Both the position numbers and the translations under genes were made by a program. From positions 1-64,000 of IMG/VR virus record IMGVR_UViG_3300037541_000451: a stretch of 64,000 nt of DNA, one strand, 5' to 3'. This DNA is from a virus. Taxonomy: Duplodnaviria > Caudoviricetes. A model generated the notes under the pieces. The model did not search any database. It was not told the DNA's origin and saw nothing but the letters and a program-made list of their open reading frames with translations. The number at the start of each line of letters is the position of its first letter. Within the stretch, counting starts at the first letter, position 1. Of the stretch, positions 111 through 60,704 are shown in pieces.

Positions 111-149
111 AAAAAAAAAAAAAAAATAGGGTTACTCATAATAACCCTA
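111..149 (-). terminator. intrinsic terminator with 16-nt T tail
   Basis: 8-bp stem TAGGGTTA/TAACCCTA (127-149), then T16 on the minus strand (A run 111-126), just after the stop at 154. Confidence 0.75.
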
Positions 150-747: not shown

Positions 748-1044
748 TCAAAATTTCTTTTCTAGCATCTTTATTACTTCATCTTGTTTTTCAACAAGAT
801 GAAGCAATTCATTTCTCGTGCAATCTGTCACTGCTCTTTTCATGAAAGATCTAATAACTTGTTGTTGTTCTTCTACCAAGCGTAGAATTATATCTCCAGG
901 AAAATCTTCGGGATACGCATCAACCAAAGCAAAGAATTGCTTATAGTTGAAAATCCCAAGACCTGTCACTTCAACCATATTATCATGGTTGATAAAGATA
1001 TAATTCCACCTGCAGGAAACTTCATCTGATCTCACGAGCGCCAT
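748..1044 (-). CDS. hypothetical protein
   Basis: ORF track; strong SD AAAGGAG upstream. Confidence 0.7.
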   Translation of the reverse strand: MALVRSDEVSCRWNYIFINHDNMVEVTGLGIFNYKQFFALVDAYPEDFPGDIILRLVEEQQQVIRSFMKRAVTDCTRNELLHLVEKQDEVIKMLEKKF

Positions 1045-1071
1045 GTCAACTCCTTTGGTTGAGATTCAGTT

Positions 1072-1132
1072 GTGAAAGACCATCGGCCCCGAAGGGCCTA
1101 GGTTTCGGCTAGTTAAGCCTCGTCAGTTTCAC
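1072..1132 (-). ncRNA. hammerhead ribozyme (type I)
   Basis: Stem I GUGAAA/UUUCAC; core CUGACGA; stem II GGCU/AGCC; GAAA; stem III ACC/GGU capped by GGCCC-UUCG-GGGCC; GUC cleavage triplet (cut between 1078 and 1077). Confidence 0.85.
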
Positions 1133-1251
1133 TTGCAGTACCAAGCATTTCCTGTACACCACACACTCAAGTCAAACTTGGAAACAATCTCATCAAAGCA
1201 TGCTTCAGTAATTTCAACATGCTTGCCGTGTTGTATTCTGAAATACCTCAT
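1129..1251 (-). CDS. small hypothetical protein (40 aa)
   Basis: SD AAAGGAG then MRYFRIQHGKHVEITEACFDEIVSKFDLSVWCTGNAWYCK; the stop lies in hammerhead stem I. Confidence 0.55.
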   Translation of the reverse strand: MRYFRIQHGKHVEITEACFDEIVSKFDLSVWCTGNAWYCK

Positions 1252-1296
1252 TTGAAATCTCCTTTGGTTGAGGTTTGACTATAAGCTTTTGCTTAT

Positions 1297-1315
1297 CATA
1301 TAAGATACCGATTTT
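1297..1315 (-). promoter_or_regulatory. candidate phage-RNAP promoter, copy 1
   Basis: AAAATCGGTATCTTATATG; related copies at 1777-1795 and 60686-60704; intergenic and upstream of an SD. Confidence 0.55.
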
Positions 1316-1322
1316 TCCGCAA

Positions 1323-22052: not shown

Positions 22053-25000
22053 TTAGCCGACTCCATACCAGCTAAAATCATTTGAAAAACCATCTGGTAT
22101 TTTCTTTAGGATATCATCTCTATTTAAAATATCAGATTCCTTAAGTACCTTTCCACCTACACGTGACTTTCCTGGAATAGGTATTAACCCTAACTCAATT
22201 GCTTCATTTAAATATTTATCATACAGTTCTTTCGAGAGGCCTCTCGCGCGCATTTCTTCTAGAGTTAAAACAATTACATTATTTTTAAGCATTTCAGCAT
22301 ATAGCTGTCTCAAGCCTTTTCTGGCTTCAACCATGTCAGATGCATTCGCGAAGAAAGCATCGTGAATAGTAGAAGTTGGAATTTTATTTTCTTTACCCCA
22401 TAAATGAAATCTTTTTACAATCACAGCATCATTAGAATGGTTTCCGTTAACGGCATAAGCTGTTCTAGCTTTACCTATATCAGCAATATCATTAATCTTT
22501 CCAGACTTATTTATAACTTGTTGCCACCAAGTTGCTTCTGTTTTCTGAGGTATTTGTAAGATATTTGTAGTCCAGTTTCCATATTTGTCCTTGTAAATTA
22601 GTTTTTCTTCGAATGTTTGTGTGAAGTTCTGCTCAATTGTTTTGCCATCAAAGTTTACCCAAGGTACATTAGTCCAACTCTTAGGTAGCTTGTTAGCATA
22701 TAGCACTTCAAATTCTGTAATAGTCTTTAATTCTAAAAACTCTGTTTTTAAATACTTAGCACCTACTCGTCTTGTTTCGGGAGTTTCTACACCATAAATG
22801 ATTTCACTAAGAGTCCCATTAGGCTTCCAAAAACCAAACCTTTTTAATATCTTTTCACTAAGTGGCTCACCAGCTTTTAAGCCAAAAAGTTTGCTAACAC
22901 TATCAGGTAAAACATAACCTTTCTTTTTGGTGCCTAAAAGCTTAATTTTGCTTATTGTTTTCCAATCAAAATCACTATTTGATGGTTTTGCATTGGCTAA
23001 ATAATCTTGTGCTAATCTACCGAAGTATCTGGTAAAATCCTTTAAAATTGGAACTTGTTCACCAAGATACTCACTCATTATTTTTGCGATAGCTTTGAAG
23101 TCCTCTGGAGTAATTACTTTATCATAAGATTTAGTCATTTTTTCAACAAAGTCACGAGTCTTAGGATCTAAGAAATAAAGTTGTTCTAAGATGTCATCTC
23201 CGGGGTCTAAACCTTTATTAAAGATATCTTTTACATTTTGTCTTAATTGCCGTAATTCTTCTGCTGTTTCTTCGTCAAACTTTTCGTATCTTGCTATTCT
23301 AGCAGATATTTCATTTAAAACTTGATCTCTTTCTGATGCTTTTACTACAAGAACATTTTCTTGTTTGTCAAGTATTTTTGCAAGTTTACCTTCAACATTT
23401 AATGCGCCTGTTCTTTCACCAGCGCCATAGAACGTCCATTAAAGATAGGAGTAGCCTTGATCACCACGTTTAATACGTTTAGTGATAGTAGAATGATTAA
23501 TGCCAAGCATTCTACCGGCTTCACGCGTTGATTCAAATATGCCAAACGGAGTGGAAACTGCTTTTCGTAAATGATGTGCGTTTCTTCCATCTGCCTCTTT
23601 ACCTTGAATTACTTCATCTTTCCAGTAATAACCTTTATGTAATATACTCTTGCTACCAGCTTTTCTAGAAATGACTGCTTTAACAACTTTATGTGCTTTT
23701 GCCGCAGCCGCAACAGTCGGGAATTCACCTAAAGGAGTAATTACAGCTCTTGCTAGTAATGAGTTATCACCACTAACAGCTTCTTTAGCTAATTGATACA
23801 TTAATGGTGATAGTTTAACGCCATCTCTAGAGCACATTGTTGCATATGCTACTTTTAAACCTTTTACTTCTGGGAAAGCTTTCATTAATAACCAATGAGC
23901 AAGTAAGTGACATCTCGCGTTCAGATAAATTAAGTTTGATGAATCGTCACCGCCATCCATACATTTTGGAATAATATGATGACGCTCATAATAACTTTTT
24001 AATGGCTTTAGTTGGAAGCCGTGTTTTTCAATTAAAGCCAAATAATGCTTTTCGTAATCCATTTTAACTCCTAATGTATATTACTATACAGATCAGACTA
24101 TATCTTACGTCGTCACCTTTTCAGGATAGTACGTCACCGCGCTTCGGAATTAGCATAATTCCTACGAACTTCATCATCTGGTCTAGATGGTATGTTCTAG
24201 TCGTTGCACCTTCAAAGGTATCCCTACCTAAGCTTGGCTCAGGATTGCCCTTTAAGAAGGGTTTCCCTGAATTCACGGTGTTTATACATGGCAACATTCT
24301 ACCATGTTTTGAGCTTTAGCAGCTTTTCGTAAATCTTTTTCCGAAAGTCCTAATTTTTGATTCAAAAGTCTAAATCTAGGATCGTTGTAAGTTGCAGCTG
24401 CGATTTCGTCGTAAAGTCTTTTCTTTTGATTGGTTGGAATGACATTTGACAGTTCCGCCAATTGTTTATTTCTAGTTGTTAAAGCAATAATCTGAGCACC
24501 AGATGAAGAAGCATCTTGCTCGAGTGCTAATGAAATATCATAATCTTTAAGTCTAGCAAGAGAGTTTCTGCTATAAGAGCCTTCCAGGTAATTATCAATT
24601 TTGGCAGTTTCTAGAGCTAATCTTAAGAATTTATTAAGATCTTCTCCATCGATTTTTTGAAAAATCTCTGATTCTAAAATAGCTCTAATGTCATTAGGCT
24701 TACTTTTAAGCATATGATTTCCAAGTTTTATCATTTCTGGACGCCATTTTGCTGCAATTTTTTGTCTTCCAGTTAAAGTCAATGAGTTATAGTTACCTTC
24801 AAAGTAATCACTTAGTCCACCTAAAAAAGATCCAATTTGATCTTGCAAATTATAAAAACCTTCTTCACTAAATTTACGTGAAATTTCAGTATTTAAAAAT
24901 GGTCTAAAAGTTTCACCTGATTGAGGACCAATTAAACCACGATCATATATTCTAGCCCGATGGTCTATAAACGGATGGTTGCTAAAAGCTTTATTTTCGG

Positions 25001-54534: not shown

Positions 54535-54611
54535 TGGTCTGCCCAAAGGGACTCGAACCCCTAACCTACTCCTTAGAAGGGAGTTGCTCTATCCAATTGA
54601 GCTATGGGCAG
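54535..54611 (-). tRNA. tRNA-Arg(TCT)
   Basis: Full cloverleaf; anticodon stem ACTCC/GGAGT, loop CTTCTAA; encoded CCA. Confidence 0.92.
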
Positions 54612-54626
54612 ATATATTAATTTTTA

Positions 54627-54896
54627 TTAAATTTCACGAGTATCTTTAGTTCTTGCTTTAATAAATTTTAAAATATCACCTCGATGTACTTTTCCTAAAT
54701 ACTGAAACTTTTTTCTACTAGGCCAGTAATCAAGACGTCTTTCATTAAGCATTCGCGACCAATGATACTCGGTATGTTTTGTCCATTTACCATCATCGTC
54801 TTGAATAGCTTGTTCTAAGAATTTCTTTCTATCGGCATCGAACTTTTCCTTGGAGTGTTCTTTCAAGATATCCCAAATAGGATCTTTATCATTCAT
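54627..54896 (-). CDS. hypothetical protein
   Basis: RLDYWPSRKKF pattern. Confidence 0.7.
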   Translation of the reverse strand: MNDKDPIWDILKEHSKEKFDADRKKFLEQAIQDDDGKWTKHTEYHWSRMLNERRLDYWPSRKKFQYLGKVHRGDILKFIKARTKDTREI

Positions 54897-55233
54897 GTAC
54901 AGAAACCTCTCGAATATGCCAATTAATTATACTCCAGTAGGATTCTAAAGATTGATACATTCCACTATATTGCTTACAATGTTCTTGGCTTAATGTTATC
55001 AAAATTTCCTGAGCATCTTCTTTACTTGTAAGAACAGCTGTCTTGACAAGATCATTAGTACAAATTAAGTATACTGTTTTAGTTTTATTCTGAGATGAAA
55101 AATTTTCAACCTTTCTTTCTAGATTGCGAACGCGATGTTCAAGCTTGTTAAAAACAGATAAAGGAACTTTTTGTTCCATAGACTGCACATGCTCAATATA
55201 TTCTTTAGTAGGAACTAAGCGAGTCATTACCAT
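54889..55233 (-). CDS. hypothetical protein, paralog of 52326-52688
   Basis: See the paralog entry. Confidence 0.65.
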   Translation of the reverse strand: MVMTRLVPTKEYIEHVQSMEQKVPLSVFNKLEHRVRNLERKVENFSSQNKTKTVYLICTNDLVKTAVLTSKEDAQEILITLSQEHCKQYSGMYQSLESYWSIINWHIREVSVHE

Positions 55234-55502
55234 TTCACCTTATCAGCCCAATATGCTGCACTCATTTTGCCCTTAGCAATGTTCTCAGCGTGGCGAGCTT
55301 TAAAAGATTCTCTACGAGCTTTGTAAGCTTCTGATTCACCTTCTTTAGGCGGTGAGCCTTTCACACCTTGAGCACCAAATCTGATAAGCTTTACTGCTTC
55401 ACCTTCCTTGGCTAATACAGCATGGCTTTTTGTTGGATGATCTGGAGTTCTTTTAGGATCGTTATAACCCTCAAAAGTTTCTCCTCGATATGTGATACTC
55501 AT
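55227..55502 (-). CDS. conserved phage protein (DUF6321-like)
   Basis: KLIRFGAQG...RRESFKARH...SAAYWADKVKW. Confidence 0.75.
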   Translation of the reverse strand: MSITYRGETFEGYNDPKRTPDHPTKSHAVLAKEGEAVKLIRFGAQGVKGSPPKEGESEAYKARRESFKARHAENIAKGKMSAAYWADKVKW

Positions 55503-55804
55503 AAAAACTCCTCACACTCAATTACTTTAATACCTGCTTCTTTGATTGCTAACAAACAAATACTGCAAGGTTTCATCAACTTTAATTCAGTACGATTTTG
55601 TTTTTCAATTCTAATCTTATGAATAGGTTTACCTTTTGCACGAATTATCGCCAATATCTCTGCATGAAGATATATACGATAGTCTTGGTCTGTTTTAGAC
55701 GCATGCCTTGCTTGAATAGGATGCGTTTTAGTGTATGAATTCTTAGCAATAGAAATCACTCTACCACGCTTATCGTAAGTAGTAGCTCTTATATCAGACT
55801 TCAT
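55499..55804 (-). CDS. zinc-dependent cytidine/dCMP deaminase-fold protein
   Basis: HAE...PCxxC. Confidence 0.8.
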   Translation of the reverse strand: MKSDIRATTYDKRGRVISIAKNSYTKTHPIQARHASKTDQDYRIYLHAEILAIIRAKGKPIHKIRIEKQNRTELKLMKPCSICLLAIKEAGIKVIECEEFL

Positions 55805-56312
55805 TGGCTTGGTCTTTAGCGAGCTTATAAAGTTTGTTAAATCGATTTGACAGGACTCTGATATTAGTCAAAGCAACCTTTGAATTTTCTGTATCATAAA
55901 AAGCCCAACGACCTGTTTCTAATTCGAATTCAACAGGAATTGCATTTGGTGATTTGTAATAAAAGAATTTAATTCGAAAGGTTTTGGCAAGTGTGTGATC
56001 TACAGAAATAGGGATAGAATTTACAATATCTTGAAATTCCAAAACTGTTATCAGCTTAGAATTCCATACCACTTCATTCTTTGAATCTAGAATTTCGAAA
56101 CAAACACGCAGTCTATCTTTAAAAAGTTCTTGAACTGTAGATTCTTCCGGCTTCCGTAAATTTACAATAGTCAGTTCACCCGTATTCATATCTACAGCGA
56201 ACGATCGGCCAGATGTAATTACATCGTGAACCATATCACTTTGAAATAGTTTCTTTACGGGCTTTACAATCATGAAAACACGATTGTTAATAGTCACAAA
56301 CTTTCGTTCCAT
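55794..56312 (-). CDS. hypothetical protein
   Basis: ORF track. Confidence 0.65.
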   Translation of the reverse strand: MERKFVTINNRVFMIVKPVKKLFQSDMVHDVITSGRSFAVDMNTGELTIVNLRKPEESTVQELFKDRLRVCFEILDSKNEVVWNSKLITVLEFQDIVNSIPISVDHTLAKTFRIKFFYYKSPNAIPVEFELETGRWAFYDTENSKVALTNIRVLSNRFNKLYKLAKDQANEV

Positions 56313-56347
56313 TTTAAGCTTTCTAAGATAAAATTATTTGCGTTTAA

Positions 56348-56473
56348 AACCGTACATATAAGTCAGCTGCCTTGTACTGTTTTGATAAGTCTTGTTGGCC
56401 AGACGACTTATCCTCAATCACGACTTGGTCCTTCGTCGCGAGCTTACAAAGCAGCTGAATTATATGTACGGTT
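56348..56473 (-). ncRNA. candidate three-way-junction RNA
   Basis: 29-nt inverted repeat enclosing two hairpins, 7 nt downstream of tRNA-Leu. Confidence 0.5.
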
Positions 56474-56480
56474 AAATAAA

Positions 56481-56569
56481 TGGTGCCCGGAGCGGGGATC
56501 GAACCCGCACGACGTTTTATTGCCGACGGATTTTAAGTCCGTTGTGTCTACCGATTTCACCATCCGGGC
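56481..56569 (-). tRNA. tRNA-Leu(TAA)
   Basis: Class II cloverleaf with long variable arm; anticodon loop CTTAAAA; CCA. Confidence 0.93.
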
Positions 56570-56577
56570 TAAGTTAA

Positions 56578-56949
56578 TTAATCGTTAATGATATATTCTT
56601 GAAATTCTTCTGGAATTATTACATTTGAAGGTGATCCTGCAAACATCGGACCAATTTGATCCGGAGTAAAACCAGCTAAACCACAGCCAATGGGAGTTAG
56701 TTTAAATTTGAGATGACTTCTTGACTTAGCAAATTCTTTGAATTTTTCAACATGTTGCGCAATTTCGTCTAACGTTAAACTTTTATACGGCGTTGATTTC
56801 GTAGGAATAGCATAAGAAGCACCTTGAAGTCCTTCTCCAACGCCTAACTTAGCTCCATATCTTTCCAAAGCTGTTTTAGCTGATCCAGCTCCGTGAATAC
56901 CTTGACGATTACTTCCAAATACAAAAATCGTATCGGTAAGTTTTTTCAT
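56578..56949 (-). CDS. FVFGSN-family protein (possibly macro-domain-like)
   Basis: FVFGSNRQGIHGAG...SYAIPTK...TPIGCGLAG; fold assignment from memory, uncertain. Confidence 0.55.
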   Translation of the reverse strand: MKKLTDTIFVFGSNRQGIHGAGSAKTALERYGAKLGVGEGLQGASYAIPTKSTPYKSLTLDEIAQHVEKFKEFAKSRSHLKFKLTPIGCGLAGFTPDQIGPMFAGSPSNVIIPEEFQEYIIND

Positions 56950-57120
56950 TTAGGTTGTAGCTAGCTCCAACTCGAGTTTGTCAAGTGTTTCCTTAAGCTC
57001 TTCTCGCGATTTTAAGAAAAGGTCGTAATTATGCCCCTTGAAATCAGTTGCAGCGACAGCCATTGCATCAGCTAATTCTAGGATATGTTGTTTTTCTTGT
57101 TTTAGTTGACCTGAATCCAT
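56950..57120 (-). CDS. small hypothetical protein (56 aa)
   Basis: SD AAAGGA; MDSGQLKQEKQHILELADAMAV... Confidence 0.6.
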   Translation of the reverse strand: MDSGQLKQEKQHILELADAMAVAATDFKGHNYDLFLKSREELKETLDKLELELATT

Positions 57121-57187
57121 ATTATCTTCCTTTATAGCTGAGATATATCAGCCACGCGTGCTACCCATTCAGCTTATAAAGGTAAAT

Positions 57188-57379
57188 TCAGTAGTCTACT
57201 TGAAAATCATCCATATCATCTTTTAGACAACTGTTACAAATACTATACTTATTTGTAATAGGGAGTTTAGCACCACAGACACAAATCATATTTAATTGTC
57301 TGCCGGTCTCTGAATCGTAGTCTGGGCAACAGCCCAACTCGTGTCCGCAACAAGGAAAATCTTCACATCTAGCGGCCAT
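57188..57379 (-). CDS. small Cys-rich (Zn-binding) protein
   Basis: CEDFPCCGH, CC, CxC, CxxC. Confidence 0.65.
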   Translation of the reverse strand: MAARCEDFPCCGHELGCCPDYDSETGRQLNMICVCGAKLPITNKYSICNSCLKDDMDDFQVDY

Positions 57380-57416
57380 AAGTGTCCTTAAATAAATTGT
57401 TTAAAAATCTATCATA

Positions 57417-57492
57417 TGGCTCCACGACCTGGATTCGAACCAGGGACCAACAAATTAACAGTCTGCTGCTCTACCGACTGAGCTATCGTGGA
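57417..57492 (-). tRNA. tRNA-Asn(GTT)
   Basis: Cloverleaf; anticodon loop CTGTTAA; CCA. Confidence 0.92.
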
Positions 57493-57668
57493 ACAGTTTC
57501 TAATAGTGCGCCTACAATTGTTCTTTCAATCTCAGCAAAAATTTTATGTTTGTTTACATTATCCTTAAGATTGTTTTCAAGTCTGAGACAAATGCATTCT
57601 GAATACATTATAGCTTTTCGATATAATATATAGTCTAATGTCTTAAGTTGTGAATGTAGATCTTGCAT
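57483..57668 (-). CDS. hypothetical protein
   Basis: ORF track; the 3' end overlaps tRNA-Asn. Confidence 0.4.
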   Translation of the reverse strand: MQDLHSQLKTLDYILYRKAIMYSECICLRLENNLKDNVNKHKIFAEIERTIVGALLETVPR

Positions 57669-57674
57669 AGTTAA

Positions 57675-57750
57675 TGGTGCCGCTTATCTGACTCGAACAG
57701 ATGACCTACCGATTACAAATCGGTTGCTCTACCAACTGAGCTAAAGCGGC
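57675..57750 (-). tRNA. tRNA-Thr(TGT)
   Basis: Cloverleaf; anticodon loop TTTGTAA; CCA. Confidence 0.93.
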
Positions 57751-57957
57751 TTAATTTGTTCTCTCAATCTTCCAAAAAGTTGTATTTATAGATTCGTTAA
57801 CTTCTAATGCAAGAACATAATTTTTCCAAAACCACCGATTATCCATCGTAGAACCTCTAACGGTATCTTTACAAGTCAACCAGTCCGGTGCATTAATTTC
57901 ATTAAATTCCAAGATTTTGTTAGAGAAGTATAGATGGGTTGCTTTAAATTCTTTCAT
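57751..57957 (-). CDS. hypothetical protein
   Basis: ORF track. Confidence 0.65.
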   Translation of the reverse strand: MKEFKATHLYFSNKILEFNEINAPDWLTCKDTVRGSTMDNRWFWKNYVLALEVNESINTTFWKIERTN

Positions 57958-57961
57958 ACTT

Positions 57962-58315
57962 TTAAGTCAACGAAATCCGAAGCTTCCGTTGAATTGCAGA
58001 AAGCCTTTTATAAGCATTTTGTAGCTTGTCACGCTTTGAAAAGAATCGATTTTTCTTAGTATTCGAATAGAACTTAATTGCTTCAGATCTTTCTGAATTA
58101 TATTCTTCAAGATCAAGTGTCATTAAATTTAATTGTCCACGAAGCACAGTACGTAGATATTGTGCTTCTTGCTGAGTTAAACTTATTAGAACTTCTGATG
58201 ATAGTTTTGACTCATTCGTTTCAGGTGAATTACGAAAGTTGTTAGCATCAGTAAAAGTCATTTTTTCAATCCATTTATTAAACCAATCGTTTAAAGTATT
58301 CATATTAACTCCCAT
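57962..58315 (-). CDS. hypothetical protein
   Basis: ORF track. Confidence 0.6.
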   Translation of the reverse strand: MGVNMNTLNDWFNKWIEKMTFTDANNFRNSPETNESKLSSEVLISLTQQEAQYLRTVLRGQLNLMTLDLEEYNSERSEAIKFYSNTKKNRFFSKRDKLQNAYKRLSAIQRKLRISLT

Positions 58316-58505
58316 TATAAACTCTATCAGAAATATCTACACCATGAAAATCGGTATAAAACTCTTCATATCTACCTTCGCTACTGCATGAACGCCTATG
58401 TGGACAATCTACATGAGAGCATTCCCATTGAGCAGTAGTTTCAATGTTACTTTTATGGTGAGTCTTTTTCTGACATATAACACAAATAGATTTTTCAGGC
58501 TTCAT
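58305..58505 (-). CDS. small Cys/His-rich protein
   Basis: CxxC...H, CxxxxC. Confidence 0.55.
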   Translation of the reverse strand: MKPEKSICVICQKKTHHKSNIETTAQWECSHVDCPHRRSCSSEGRYEEFYTDFHGVDISDRVYNGS

Positions 58506-58525
58506 TAAAGACTCCTGTAAAAGAA

Positions 58526-58798
58526 TTATTTGTTAAAGCCATTTCTAAGAATTTTTCGAATGCTTTTTTGAATTTTTTCTTTTCTTTTTATTTCTTCTGT
58601 TAAATCACGCTCATATTGTCTATAGTAATTTAGTAACTTAAAAGAATTTTGAACAGAGCTGTCATCTTTGTTTATATAGTCACATTTATGATAATAGTAT
58701 TTTGCCTTATCTCTGGCGCGCTCCTTTTCAATATGGAGCTCATTTAATTGATCTTTTAAGATAGACTCGAAAAATTGCAAAGAGGAATTGTCTAGCAT
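58526..58798 (-). CDS. hypothetical coiled-coil protein
   Basis: SD AGGAG. Confidence 0.65.
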   Translation of the reverse strand: MLDNSSLQFFESILKDQLNELHIEKERARDKAKYYYHKCDYINKDDSSVQNSFKLLNYYRQYERDLTEEIKRKEKIQKSIRKILRNGFNK

Positions 58799-58810
58799 TT
58801 TCGCTCCTAA

Positions 58811-58848
58811 TGGTAGGCCGGGTCGGATTCGAACCGACGGCTAAACGA
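58811..58848 (-). pseudogene. 3' half of a broken tRNA (positions about 39-76)
   Basis: TCGTT-TAGCC-GTCGG TTCGAAT CCGAC-CCGGCCT-A-CCA; its acceptor strand pairs with the 5' half at 59432-59458. Confidence 0.85.
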
Positions 58849-58925
58849 TGGTGAGACCGATGGGACTCGAACCCATAACCCGCATCTTATGAGGATGACG
58901 CTCTAACCGATTGAGCTACAGTCTC
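58849..58925 (-). tRNA. tRNA with CAT anticodon (probably elongator Met)
   Basis: Cloverleaf, loop CTCATAA, CCA; lacks the C4-G69 and C29-G41 pairs linked to TilS recognition in E. coli. Confidence 0.85.
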
Positions 58926-60685: not shown

Positions 60686-60704
60686 CATATAAGATACCGC
60701 ATTT
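60686..60704 (-). promoter_or_regulatory. candidate phage-RNAP promoter, copy 3
   Basis: AAATGCGGTATCTTATATG. Confidence 0.55.

Follow-up and report, generated by a model that had tools for sequence, protein, structure and literature searches.

A candidate type I hammerhead ribozyme between two small genes of a lake-water phage and its relatives in viral contigs

Gene context of the locus

The window analyzed here, by which we mean the whole 64-kb (64,000-nucleotide) stretch of phage DNA, comes from lake water metagenomes, and all of its genes lie on the minus strand. In the direction of transcription, the order begins with terminase, portal, a MuF-like head protein with similarity to RNA polymerase, capsid, tape measure, and tail tip. 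The tail tip gene is followed by two endolysin-like genes, an HNH gene, a promoter-like block, a 40-amino-acid (aa) open reading frame (ORF), and the ribozyme that is the subject of this report; beyond the ribozyme come ORFs of 98, 64, and 77 aa and then a terminator (149-127). Two strong intrinsic-terminator-like hairpins, at 2085-2104 and 127-149 (minus strand), enclose the unit comprising the HNH and hydrolase genes together with the ribozyme operon. Elsewhere in the window, a group I intron at 24074-24350 (minus strand; Rfam, 75.8 bits) splits the gene for the 1087-aa MuF-like head-morphogenesis protein, the C-terminal part of which resembles RNA polymerase (phrog_414), as do the next ORFs, and a cluster of five tRNA genes lies at 54538-58925 (minus strand). 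The features of the ribozyme operon are as follows.

1282-1318, minus strand: promoter-like block, with the core GGTATCTTATATG at 1309-1297, followed by a 5' hairpin AUAAGC-AAAA-GCUUAU (in a 301-nt fold)
1129-1251, minus strand: upstream 40-aa ORF, with the Shine-Dalgarno sequence AAGGAG 7 nt before the ATG and its UGA stop (1131-1129) within stem I of the ribozyme
1072-1132, minus strand: type I hammerhead ribozyme, with stem I open and stems II and III closed by loops (from sequence, fold, and our own covariance model, R1)
1050-1063, minus strand: leader CTCAACCAAAGGAG before the 98-aa ORF, with a second copy at 1272-1259 before the 40-aa ORF
748-1044, minus strand: downstream 98-aa ORF, with its ATG at 1044 and the Shine-Dalgarno sequence AAGGAG at 1055-1050
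127-149, minus strand: intrinsic-terminator-like hairpin with a T10 run, the likely end of the transcription unit

The ribozyme lies on the coding strand between the two co-directional ORFs, with phage genes around them. This bears out the preliminary description of the locus, which had placed it between the 40-aa ORF and ORF 748-1044 and had put the stop codon of the former in stem I. Searches of Pfam, PHROGs, and the ESM Atlas yielded no usable family for either flanking ORF, and the 98-aa ORF has no relative among viral contigs. The ESM Atlas entry for this ORF starts at residue 23 (978-1044 region), a different gene caller having taken an internal ATG; the upstream ATG at 1044 has a far better Shine-Dalgarno sequence than the internal one. 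The two ORFs had also been said to share a leader, and they do: each has as its initiation region an exact 14-nt repeat, CTCAACCAAAGGAG, whose two copies, at 1272-1259 and 1063-1050, are the only ones in the window. It is not conserved in the relatives. The repeat may be a local duplication, or it may be a device for equal translation of both genes.

A candidate phage promoter had been noted about 165 nt upstream of the ribozyme, and the distance between the core at 1309-1297 and the 5' end of the ribozyme at 1132 agrees with that figure. The core GGTATCTTATATG is present in three copies in the window, all on the minus strand (1297-1309, 1777-1789, and 60686-60698). It also recurs in the two close relatives described below, with three copies in G028 (L126 positions 8855, 12911, and 13528) and one in L120 (5031-5043). 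The copies are always found on the coding strand ahead of a Shine-Dalgarno sequence; a hairpin comes immediately after two of them, and in the window one copy sits just ahead of the Hydrolase_2 lysin gene. The block at 1281-1323 was additionally found with other flanks in lake metagenome contigs.

Anatomy and fold of the ribozyme

Hammerhead ribozymes are built from three helices round a core with the consensus C3 U4 G5 A6 N7 G8 A9 and G12 A13 A14, with closing pairs G10.1-C11.1 and A15.1-U16.1 and with H17 (not G) at the cleavage site. Their cleavage yields a 5'-OH end and a 2',3'-cyclic phosphate end. In the window, the minus strand from 1132 to 1072 reads GUGAAA / CUGACGA / GGCU-UAACU-AGCC / GAAA / CC-UA-GGCCC-UUCG-GGGCC-GAU-GG / UC / UUUCAC, which we assigned to the following elements.

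1133, minus strand: unpaired A directly 5' of stem I (A in 124 of 128 family copies)
1127-1132, minus strand: 5' strand of stem I, GUGAAA (covariation at all six pairs of this stem across the family)
1120-1126, minus strand: core C3 U4 G5 A6 C7 G8 A9 (CUGACGA; invariant except N7 in 128 distinct family copies)
1107-1119, minus strand: stem II, GGCU/AGCC, with loop UAACU, closed by G10.1-C11.1 (family loop pattern U-N-A-N-U/G)
1104-1106, minus strand: core G12 A13 A14 (invariant across the family)
1079-1103, minus strand: stem III, with A15.1-U16.1, C-G, and C-G, internal loop UA/GAU, and GGCCC-UUCG-GGGCC
1077-1078, minus strand: predicted scissile bond after C17 (1078) and before U1.1 (1077), from the hammerhead consensus (C17 in 120 of 128 family copies)
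1072-1077, minus strand: stem I 3' strand, UUUCAC, the predicted 5'-OH end of the downstream RNA (from sequence and model R1)
1070-1071, minus strand: unpaired AA directly 3' of stem I (A in 122 of 128 and 104 of 128 family copies)

The core elements CUGACGA (1126-1120), GAA (1106-1104), and C17 (1078) are all in place, and the three helices carry both expected closing pairs. Stems I, II, and III comprise 6, 4, and 3+5 bp, respectively; the distal helix of stem III is the 5-bp one and bears the UUCG cap, with a 2x3 internal loop below it. Since the 6-bp stem I, for which we found no extension past 6 bp, is open at both ends, the topology is type I. The preliminary description had claimed a complete hammerhead with all core bases, three stems, and a C(UUCG)G cap, and our assignment matches it base for base at 1132-1072. 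The cut that it placed between 1078 and 1077, 33 nt ahead of the ATG at 1044, is likewise the position predicted from the sequence and the consensus.

The three-way junction is the minimum-free-energy fold of a 73-nt segment (z = -2.35) and is also the minimum-free-energy fold within 301 nt of context. When the window was scanned with a regular expression combined with stem requirements, the 1132-1072 ribozyme was the single site. The same scan of 1,500 random windows that keep the dinucleotide frequencies of the window gave 23 hits with stems of at least 4/3/3 and none with 6/4/3 or better. Chance does not explain the motif.

Public models and records gave little for this locus. A cmscan of the whole window against Rfam 15 found the group I intron and the five tRNAs and no hammerhead at the gathering score, and none of RF00163, RF00008, RF02275-7, and RF03152 reached its gathering cutoff on the window ribozyme. 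A permissive Rfam search (E ≤ 10) of positions 950 to 1250 returned no hammerhead match either. The Infernal scan with hammerhead models that had been proposed as a check on the preliminary description was therefore blank at both thresholds, a result that we attribute to a gap in the models and do not take as evidence against the ribozyme, because 20 viral loci carrying canonical relatives likewise gave no Rfam hammerhead at the gathering score. For one relative (L019), the permissive search returned only the RAGATH-1 hammerhead (RF03152) at 19 bits (cutoff, 56.3) and Hammerhead_3 (RF00008) at 14.8 bits. A blastn search of positions 600 to 2000 against 50,697 phage records found no match. Contigs from four lake runs held no variant within the ribozyme, and hence no covariation could be read within the population.

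A type I family in viral contigs and two close relatives

We derived a search pattern from the window, CTGANGAGGCT-N(3-8)-AGCCGAAA-N(10-34)-GTC, and applied it to IMG/VR viral contigs, where it matched more than 119 loci, a lower bound. Among the matches listed, 125 of 131 can be closed as type I hammerheads, and in nearly all of these stem I is exactly 6 bp long; this is the statistic that is free of model fitting. We then built a covariance model (R1) from 43 gapless 58-nt viral-contig copies, leaving out the window and its close relative L066. R1 nonetheless gave one hit in the 64 kb of the window, at 1135-1069, with 55.8 bits, an E value of 3.8e-12, and all of model positions 1-58 of 58 covered. 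The model identified 135 sites in 99 sources and another 40 in the remaining loci (more than 170 copies in the loci examined). About 20 good hits came from bacterial genomes and metagenome-assembled genomes (MAGs) of several phyla; family members (L148, L140, L145, L161, and others) were seen in MAGs or genomes of Nanopelagicaceae, Phycisphaerales, Mucilaginibacter, Burkholderiales, Bdellovibrionota, and others. These copies are presumably prophages, or phage contigs binned with a host genome.

In 128 distinct aligned copies, 14 of 16 pairs changed on both sides and 99.6% of cells pair, figures that lean toward the model structure because the alignment was fitted to the model. The counts were taken from a gapless alignment (A2) and the model-fitted alignment (A8); a MAFFT alignment (A1) misplaced stem III. 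The pairs G10.1-C11.1 and A15.1-U16.1 were invariant among the 128 copies, as is general in hammerheads.

This conservation bears on the alternative that the element is only a stable hairpin, serving as a terminator or 3'-end protector, and that its hammerhead core is coincidental or dead. A consensus scan does mark GGCCC-UUCG-GGGCC plus GAUGGUCUUU as terminator-like, and the permissive Rfam search of positions 950 to 1250 returned a weak resemblance to PhotoRC-I. However, the U tract is poor (three U's beginning 7 nt past the stem), all 13 core positions are canonical and conserved across the 128 relatives, the stems co-vary, and the chance expectation is below 1 in 1,500 windows. We regard this alternative as barely credible. 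Identities as a terminator and as PhotoRC-I were each examined and rejected. As an intrinsic terminator, the hairpin is followed by GAUGGUCUUU with no direct U run, and true terminators are found at 2104-2085 and 149-127. As a PhotoRC-I RNA (RF01716), it scores 17.9 bits against a gathering cutoff of 45, and the match spans stems II and III only.

The family has a uniform design: type I topology, a 6-bp stem I between a 5' A and a 3' AA, a 4-bp stem II, and a variable stem III. The window agrees with it at every conserved position, including A(-1), AA(+1,+2), and loop II. New at the level of the family is the conserved unpaired A before stem I together with the AA after it. Hammerheads need a tertiary contact between stem I and stem II for fast cleavage at cellular Mg2+, and the window offers candidate elements for one, namely A(-1), A(+1), and A(+2) and the U-N-A-N-U/G loop II, at the usual 6-bp and 4-bp distances. 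From this arrangement we infer that the flanking unpaired A's are a candidate docking site for loop II.

The position of the ribozyme relative to genes is also regular. By crude ORF calls, the stop codon of the upstream ORF falls within -10 to +4 of the start of stem I in 75 of 125 cases, and the stops peak in three places: on the UGA of CUGA, over the final three bases of stem I, and just ahead of that stem. The next ORF, by the same crude calls, starts a median of 26 nt after the cut (18 to 34 nt in 61 of 125), and the leader that follows the cut is A rich, with purines at the expected Shine-Dalgarno location. The ORFs on either side are short, with median lengths of 75 and 86 aa, and rarely match PHROGs of known function; the few that can be named are anti-restriction and primase/helicase genes, and none is structural.

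The overlap with stop codons could point to a conditional device, in which stem I and the core would be melted by ribosomes reaching the end of the upstream ORF, so that the RNA would be cut only when that ORF is untranslated and processing would be coupled to translation. In most family members, the stop codon of the upstream ORF shares bases with stem I or the CUGA core, and the UGA at 1131-1129 in the window is an instance. Yet the overlap may reflect mere genome compaction, as the consensus offers a stop in all three frames, and a terminating ribosome is gone within seconds, leaving the ribozyme free to fold afterward. We rate conditional cleavage as highly unlikely.

Many family members stand in arrays, with six ribozymes in L008, five in L051, and four in L038. 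The dense arrays at L008 7492-10037, L051 1255-2958, and L038 5404-7713 have roughly one type I hammerhead per small ORF. The window is not clustered in this manner, having one copy versus three in its relative G028, and because it has this single ribozyme, "one per gene" processing does not apply to it. The formation of RNA circles from two flanking ribozymes, another role that we considered, is inapplicable to a single copy for the same reason; Perreault et al. looked for circular products and found none (PMC3088659). In G028, the three same-operon hammerheads (L124 1501-1570, 2062-2128, and 2416-2482) have identical stem I strands, and in principle the 5' end of an excised fragment could pair with the ribozyme at its own 3' end, with ligation then closing the circle. 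Neighboring ribozymes of most other arrays differ in stem I sequence.

Two relatives stand closest to the window. The first, G028, is a 62.9-kb contig that contains the locus L066. When aligned to the window, it shows two conserved islands only, the promoter-like block (TGCGGAAAA-R-TCGGTATCTTATATGATAAGCAAAAGC) and the ribozyme with its flanks; the remaining DNA is unrelated, and the ORFs around the ribozyme are not homologous to those of the window. G028 has its three ribozyme copies in one operon, within 1 kb. In copy b, stem II is GACC/GGUC instead of GGCU/AGCC, a change of two compensatory pairs, and stem III contains a G-U. The second relative, L120, was retrieved through its hydrolase protein (45% identity), independently of the ribozyme pattern, and carries the same ribozyme (50.2 bits with R1). 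Its stem II, GUCU/AGAC, is a compensatory variant; the distal helix of its stem III (GGGAGC/GCUCCC) differs, and the UA/RAU internal loop and UUCG cap are kept. In L120 as well, stem I contains a UGA stop; an ATG lies 30 nt past the cut, and the same promoter core lies 550 nt upstream of the ribozyme. Besides the window, the long-stem-III sub-lineage with the 2x3 internal loop was found only in these two phages; the loop is unusual and speaks against our reading of a functional hammerhead.

An active ribozyme need not benefit its phage, and a selfish or neutral repeat that spreads among phage intergenic gaps would account for some of these observations. G028 has three copies with identical stems I and III inside 1 kb, the same ribozyme sits among unrelated ORFs in three phages, and self-cleaving ribozymes are frequent in selfish elements (PMC3088659). 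Against this, neither transposition genes nor target duplications were seen, and the copies are precisely placed relative to the stop codon before them and the ribosome-binding site after them. The compensatory changes in G028 copy b and L120 indicate long-term selection on the fold, and the position after the promoter is kept in L120, where the hydrolase is only 45% identical. We consider a selfish or neutral repeat unlikely.

Predicted transcript processing and known systems

Together, these data make it probable that the element is a functional type I hammerhead that splits the shared transcript of two co-directional small genes into two messages. Self-cleavage of the window ribozyme is itself very likely, given its canonical core, a fold under selection, and related prophage hammerheads that cleave in vitro and in Escherichia coli. 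Transcription of the unit would begin at the phage-type promoter at about 1300, and the RNA would fold into the three-way junction and undergo self-cleavage after C1078. A consequence of the type I topology is that the upstream RNA would retain the stop codon and the entire ribozyme, so that its translation would terminate normally. The upstream RNA would end in two stable GC-rich hairpins and a 2',3'-cyclic phosphate. The downstream RNA would begin with a 5'-OH and a short, A-rich, unstructured leader of 33 nt, consisting of UUUCAC, AA, and then the CUCAACCAAAGGAG initiation region as in the first gene. In this way, one bicistronic early-type transcript would probably become two independent messages whose ends are defined.

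The cut may also stabilize the downstream mRNA or uncouple it from the upstream ORF, two consequences raised in the preliminary description. The effect of a 5'-OH on stability turns on the RNases of the host, as the glmS case cited in PMC6765202 illustrates: there, a 5'-OH end can destabilize RNA in hosts that have RNase J1.

The unit had further been called a putative early operon. In G028 and L120 alike, the promoter-to-ribozyme unit stands at the head of a series of small ORFs of unknown function, and these lead on to a stand-alone gene for a T7-type RNA polymerase, about 5.5 kb downstream in G028 (359 bits to phrog_414) and some 1 kb downstream in L120 (PF00940, 141 bits). The layout of promoter, ribozyme, small ORFs, and polymerase in these two phages resembles the early region of T7. 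In the window, by contrast, the promoter-ribozyme unit directly follows the tail and lysis genes. What supports early status for the window unit is thus its synteny with the polymerase-linked units of two relatives. The family at large was not found to be tied to T7-type polymerases, which might have suggested fast transcription with folding ahead of ribosomes; of 37 contigs with a family ribozyme, a single one has PF00940, as does 1 of the 8 that are at least 90% complete.

A more ambitious reading, which we hold to be unlikely, is that in this phage lineage the first operon to be transcribed by a T7-type polymerase delivered with the capsid always includes the ribozyme, which would be a host-independent replacement for the RNase III sites of T7. 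If this were true, the second gene's 5'-OH leader would carry the initiation region of the first, and early messages would be expressed evenly and would evade host 5'-end-dependent decay before any phage protein exists. The three related phages provide a natural comparison, having the same promoter and ribozyme with different genes and, in two of them, the polymerase gene downstream.

Whichever of these roles applies, the proposed splitting of the transcript would not depend on the host, and it has two counterparts outside natural hammerheads. The RNase III processing sites in phage T7 early mRNA, reportedly the work of Dunn and Studier, are said to be cut among small early genes upstream of the polymerase gene and to leave the upstream message ending in a hairpin, as would happen here. 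The T7 sites reportedly depend on a protein enzyme of the host and have 5'-phosphate and 3'-OH ends, whereas the RNA here would cut itself and have 5'-OH and 2',3'-cyclic phosphate ends; the likeness is an analogy of function and not membership. RiboJ, a synthetic insulator reportedly from Lou et al. in 2012, is said likewise to place a hammerhead just upstream of a ribosome-binding site and to give the translated RNA a defined short 5' leader regardless of the sequence upstream. It is said to be an engineered type III sTRSV ribozyme with an added hairpin on the downstream RNA, whereas the natural type I ribozyme of the window would leave 6 nt and AA.

Type I hammerheads upstream of an ORF are also found in the 5' untranslated regions of RNA mycoviruses, where self-cleavage was shown to be necessary for translation (Lopez-Galiano et al. 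2026, PMC13725137). That system concerns cap-independent translation of RNA genomes in eukaryotes, whereas the window belongs to a bacterial DNA phage with Shine-Dalgarno initiation. Among Rfam families, Hammerhead_1 (RF00163) and RAGATH-1 (RF03152) have the type I topology and catalytic core seen in the window; RAGATH-1 differs in its extra 5' hairpin and minimal stem II.

The closest counterparts are the hammerheads of phages and prophages. Hammerheads situated beside genes in prophages have been shown to cleave polycistronic RNA both in vitro and in E. coli (Perreault et al. 2011, PMC3088659), and reviews describe neighboring hammerheads that flank small, non-conserved, phage-linked ORFs, in a role that they call open or largely elusive (PMC6155905, PMC6765202). 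The window shares with the published examples (PMC3088659; de la Pena 2017, PMC6155905) a canonical core and a site between co-directional, small, non-conserved ORFs; its relatives share their arrays (three copies in G028, six in L008), and the same processing of polycistronic RNA has been proposed. The published accounts stress type II ribozymes with a pseudoknot between loop I and the 3' tail, whereas the ribozyme of the window is of type I, its stem I has a fixed length of 6 bp between unpaired A and AA, and it is a single copy that is negative in Rfam 15. In principle, our findings add little that is new, as hammerheads between small phage genes were described in 2011. Because Rfam models miss the whole type I phage family, however, routine annotation would wrongly return "no ribozyme," and the regular architecture of the family, with a stop in the ribozyme, a start about 26 nt past the cut, and flanking A's, provides testable hypotheses on what phage hammerheads are for. 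The arrangement has been known in phages since 2011 and the ribozyme described here is a clean but ordinary example of it, distinguished by a type I form that Rfam misses, by conserved flanking A's, and by the promoter-ribozyme-polymerase layout of related phages.
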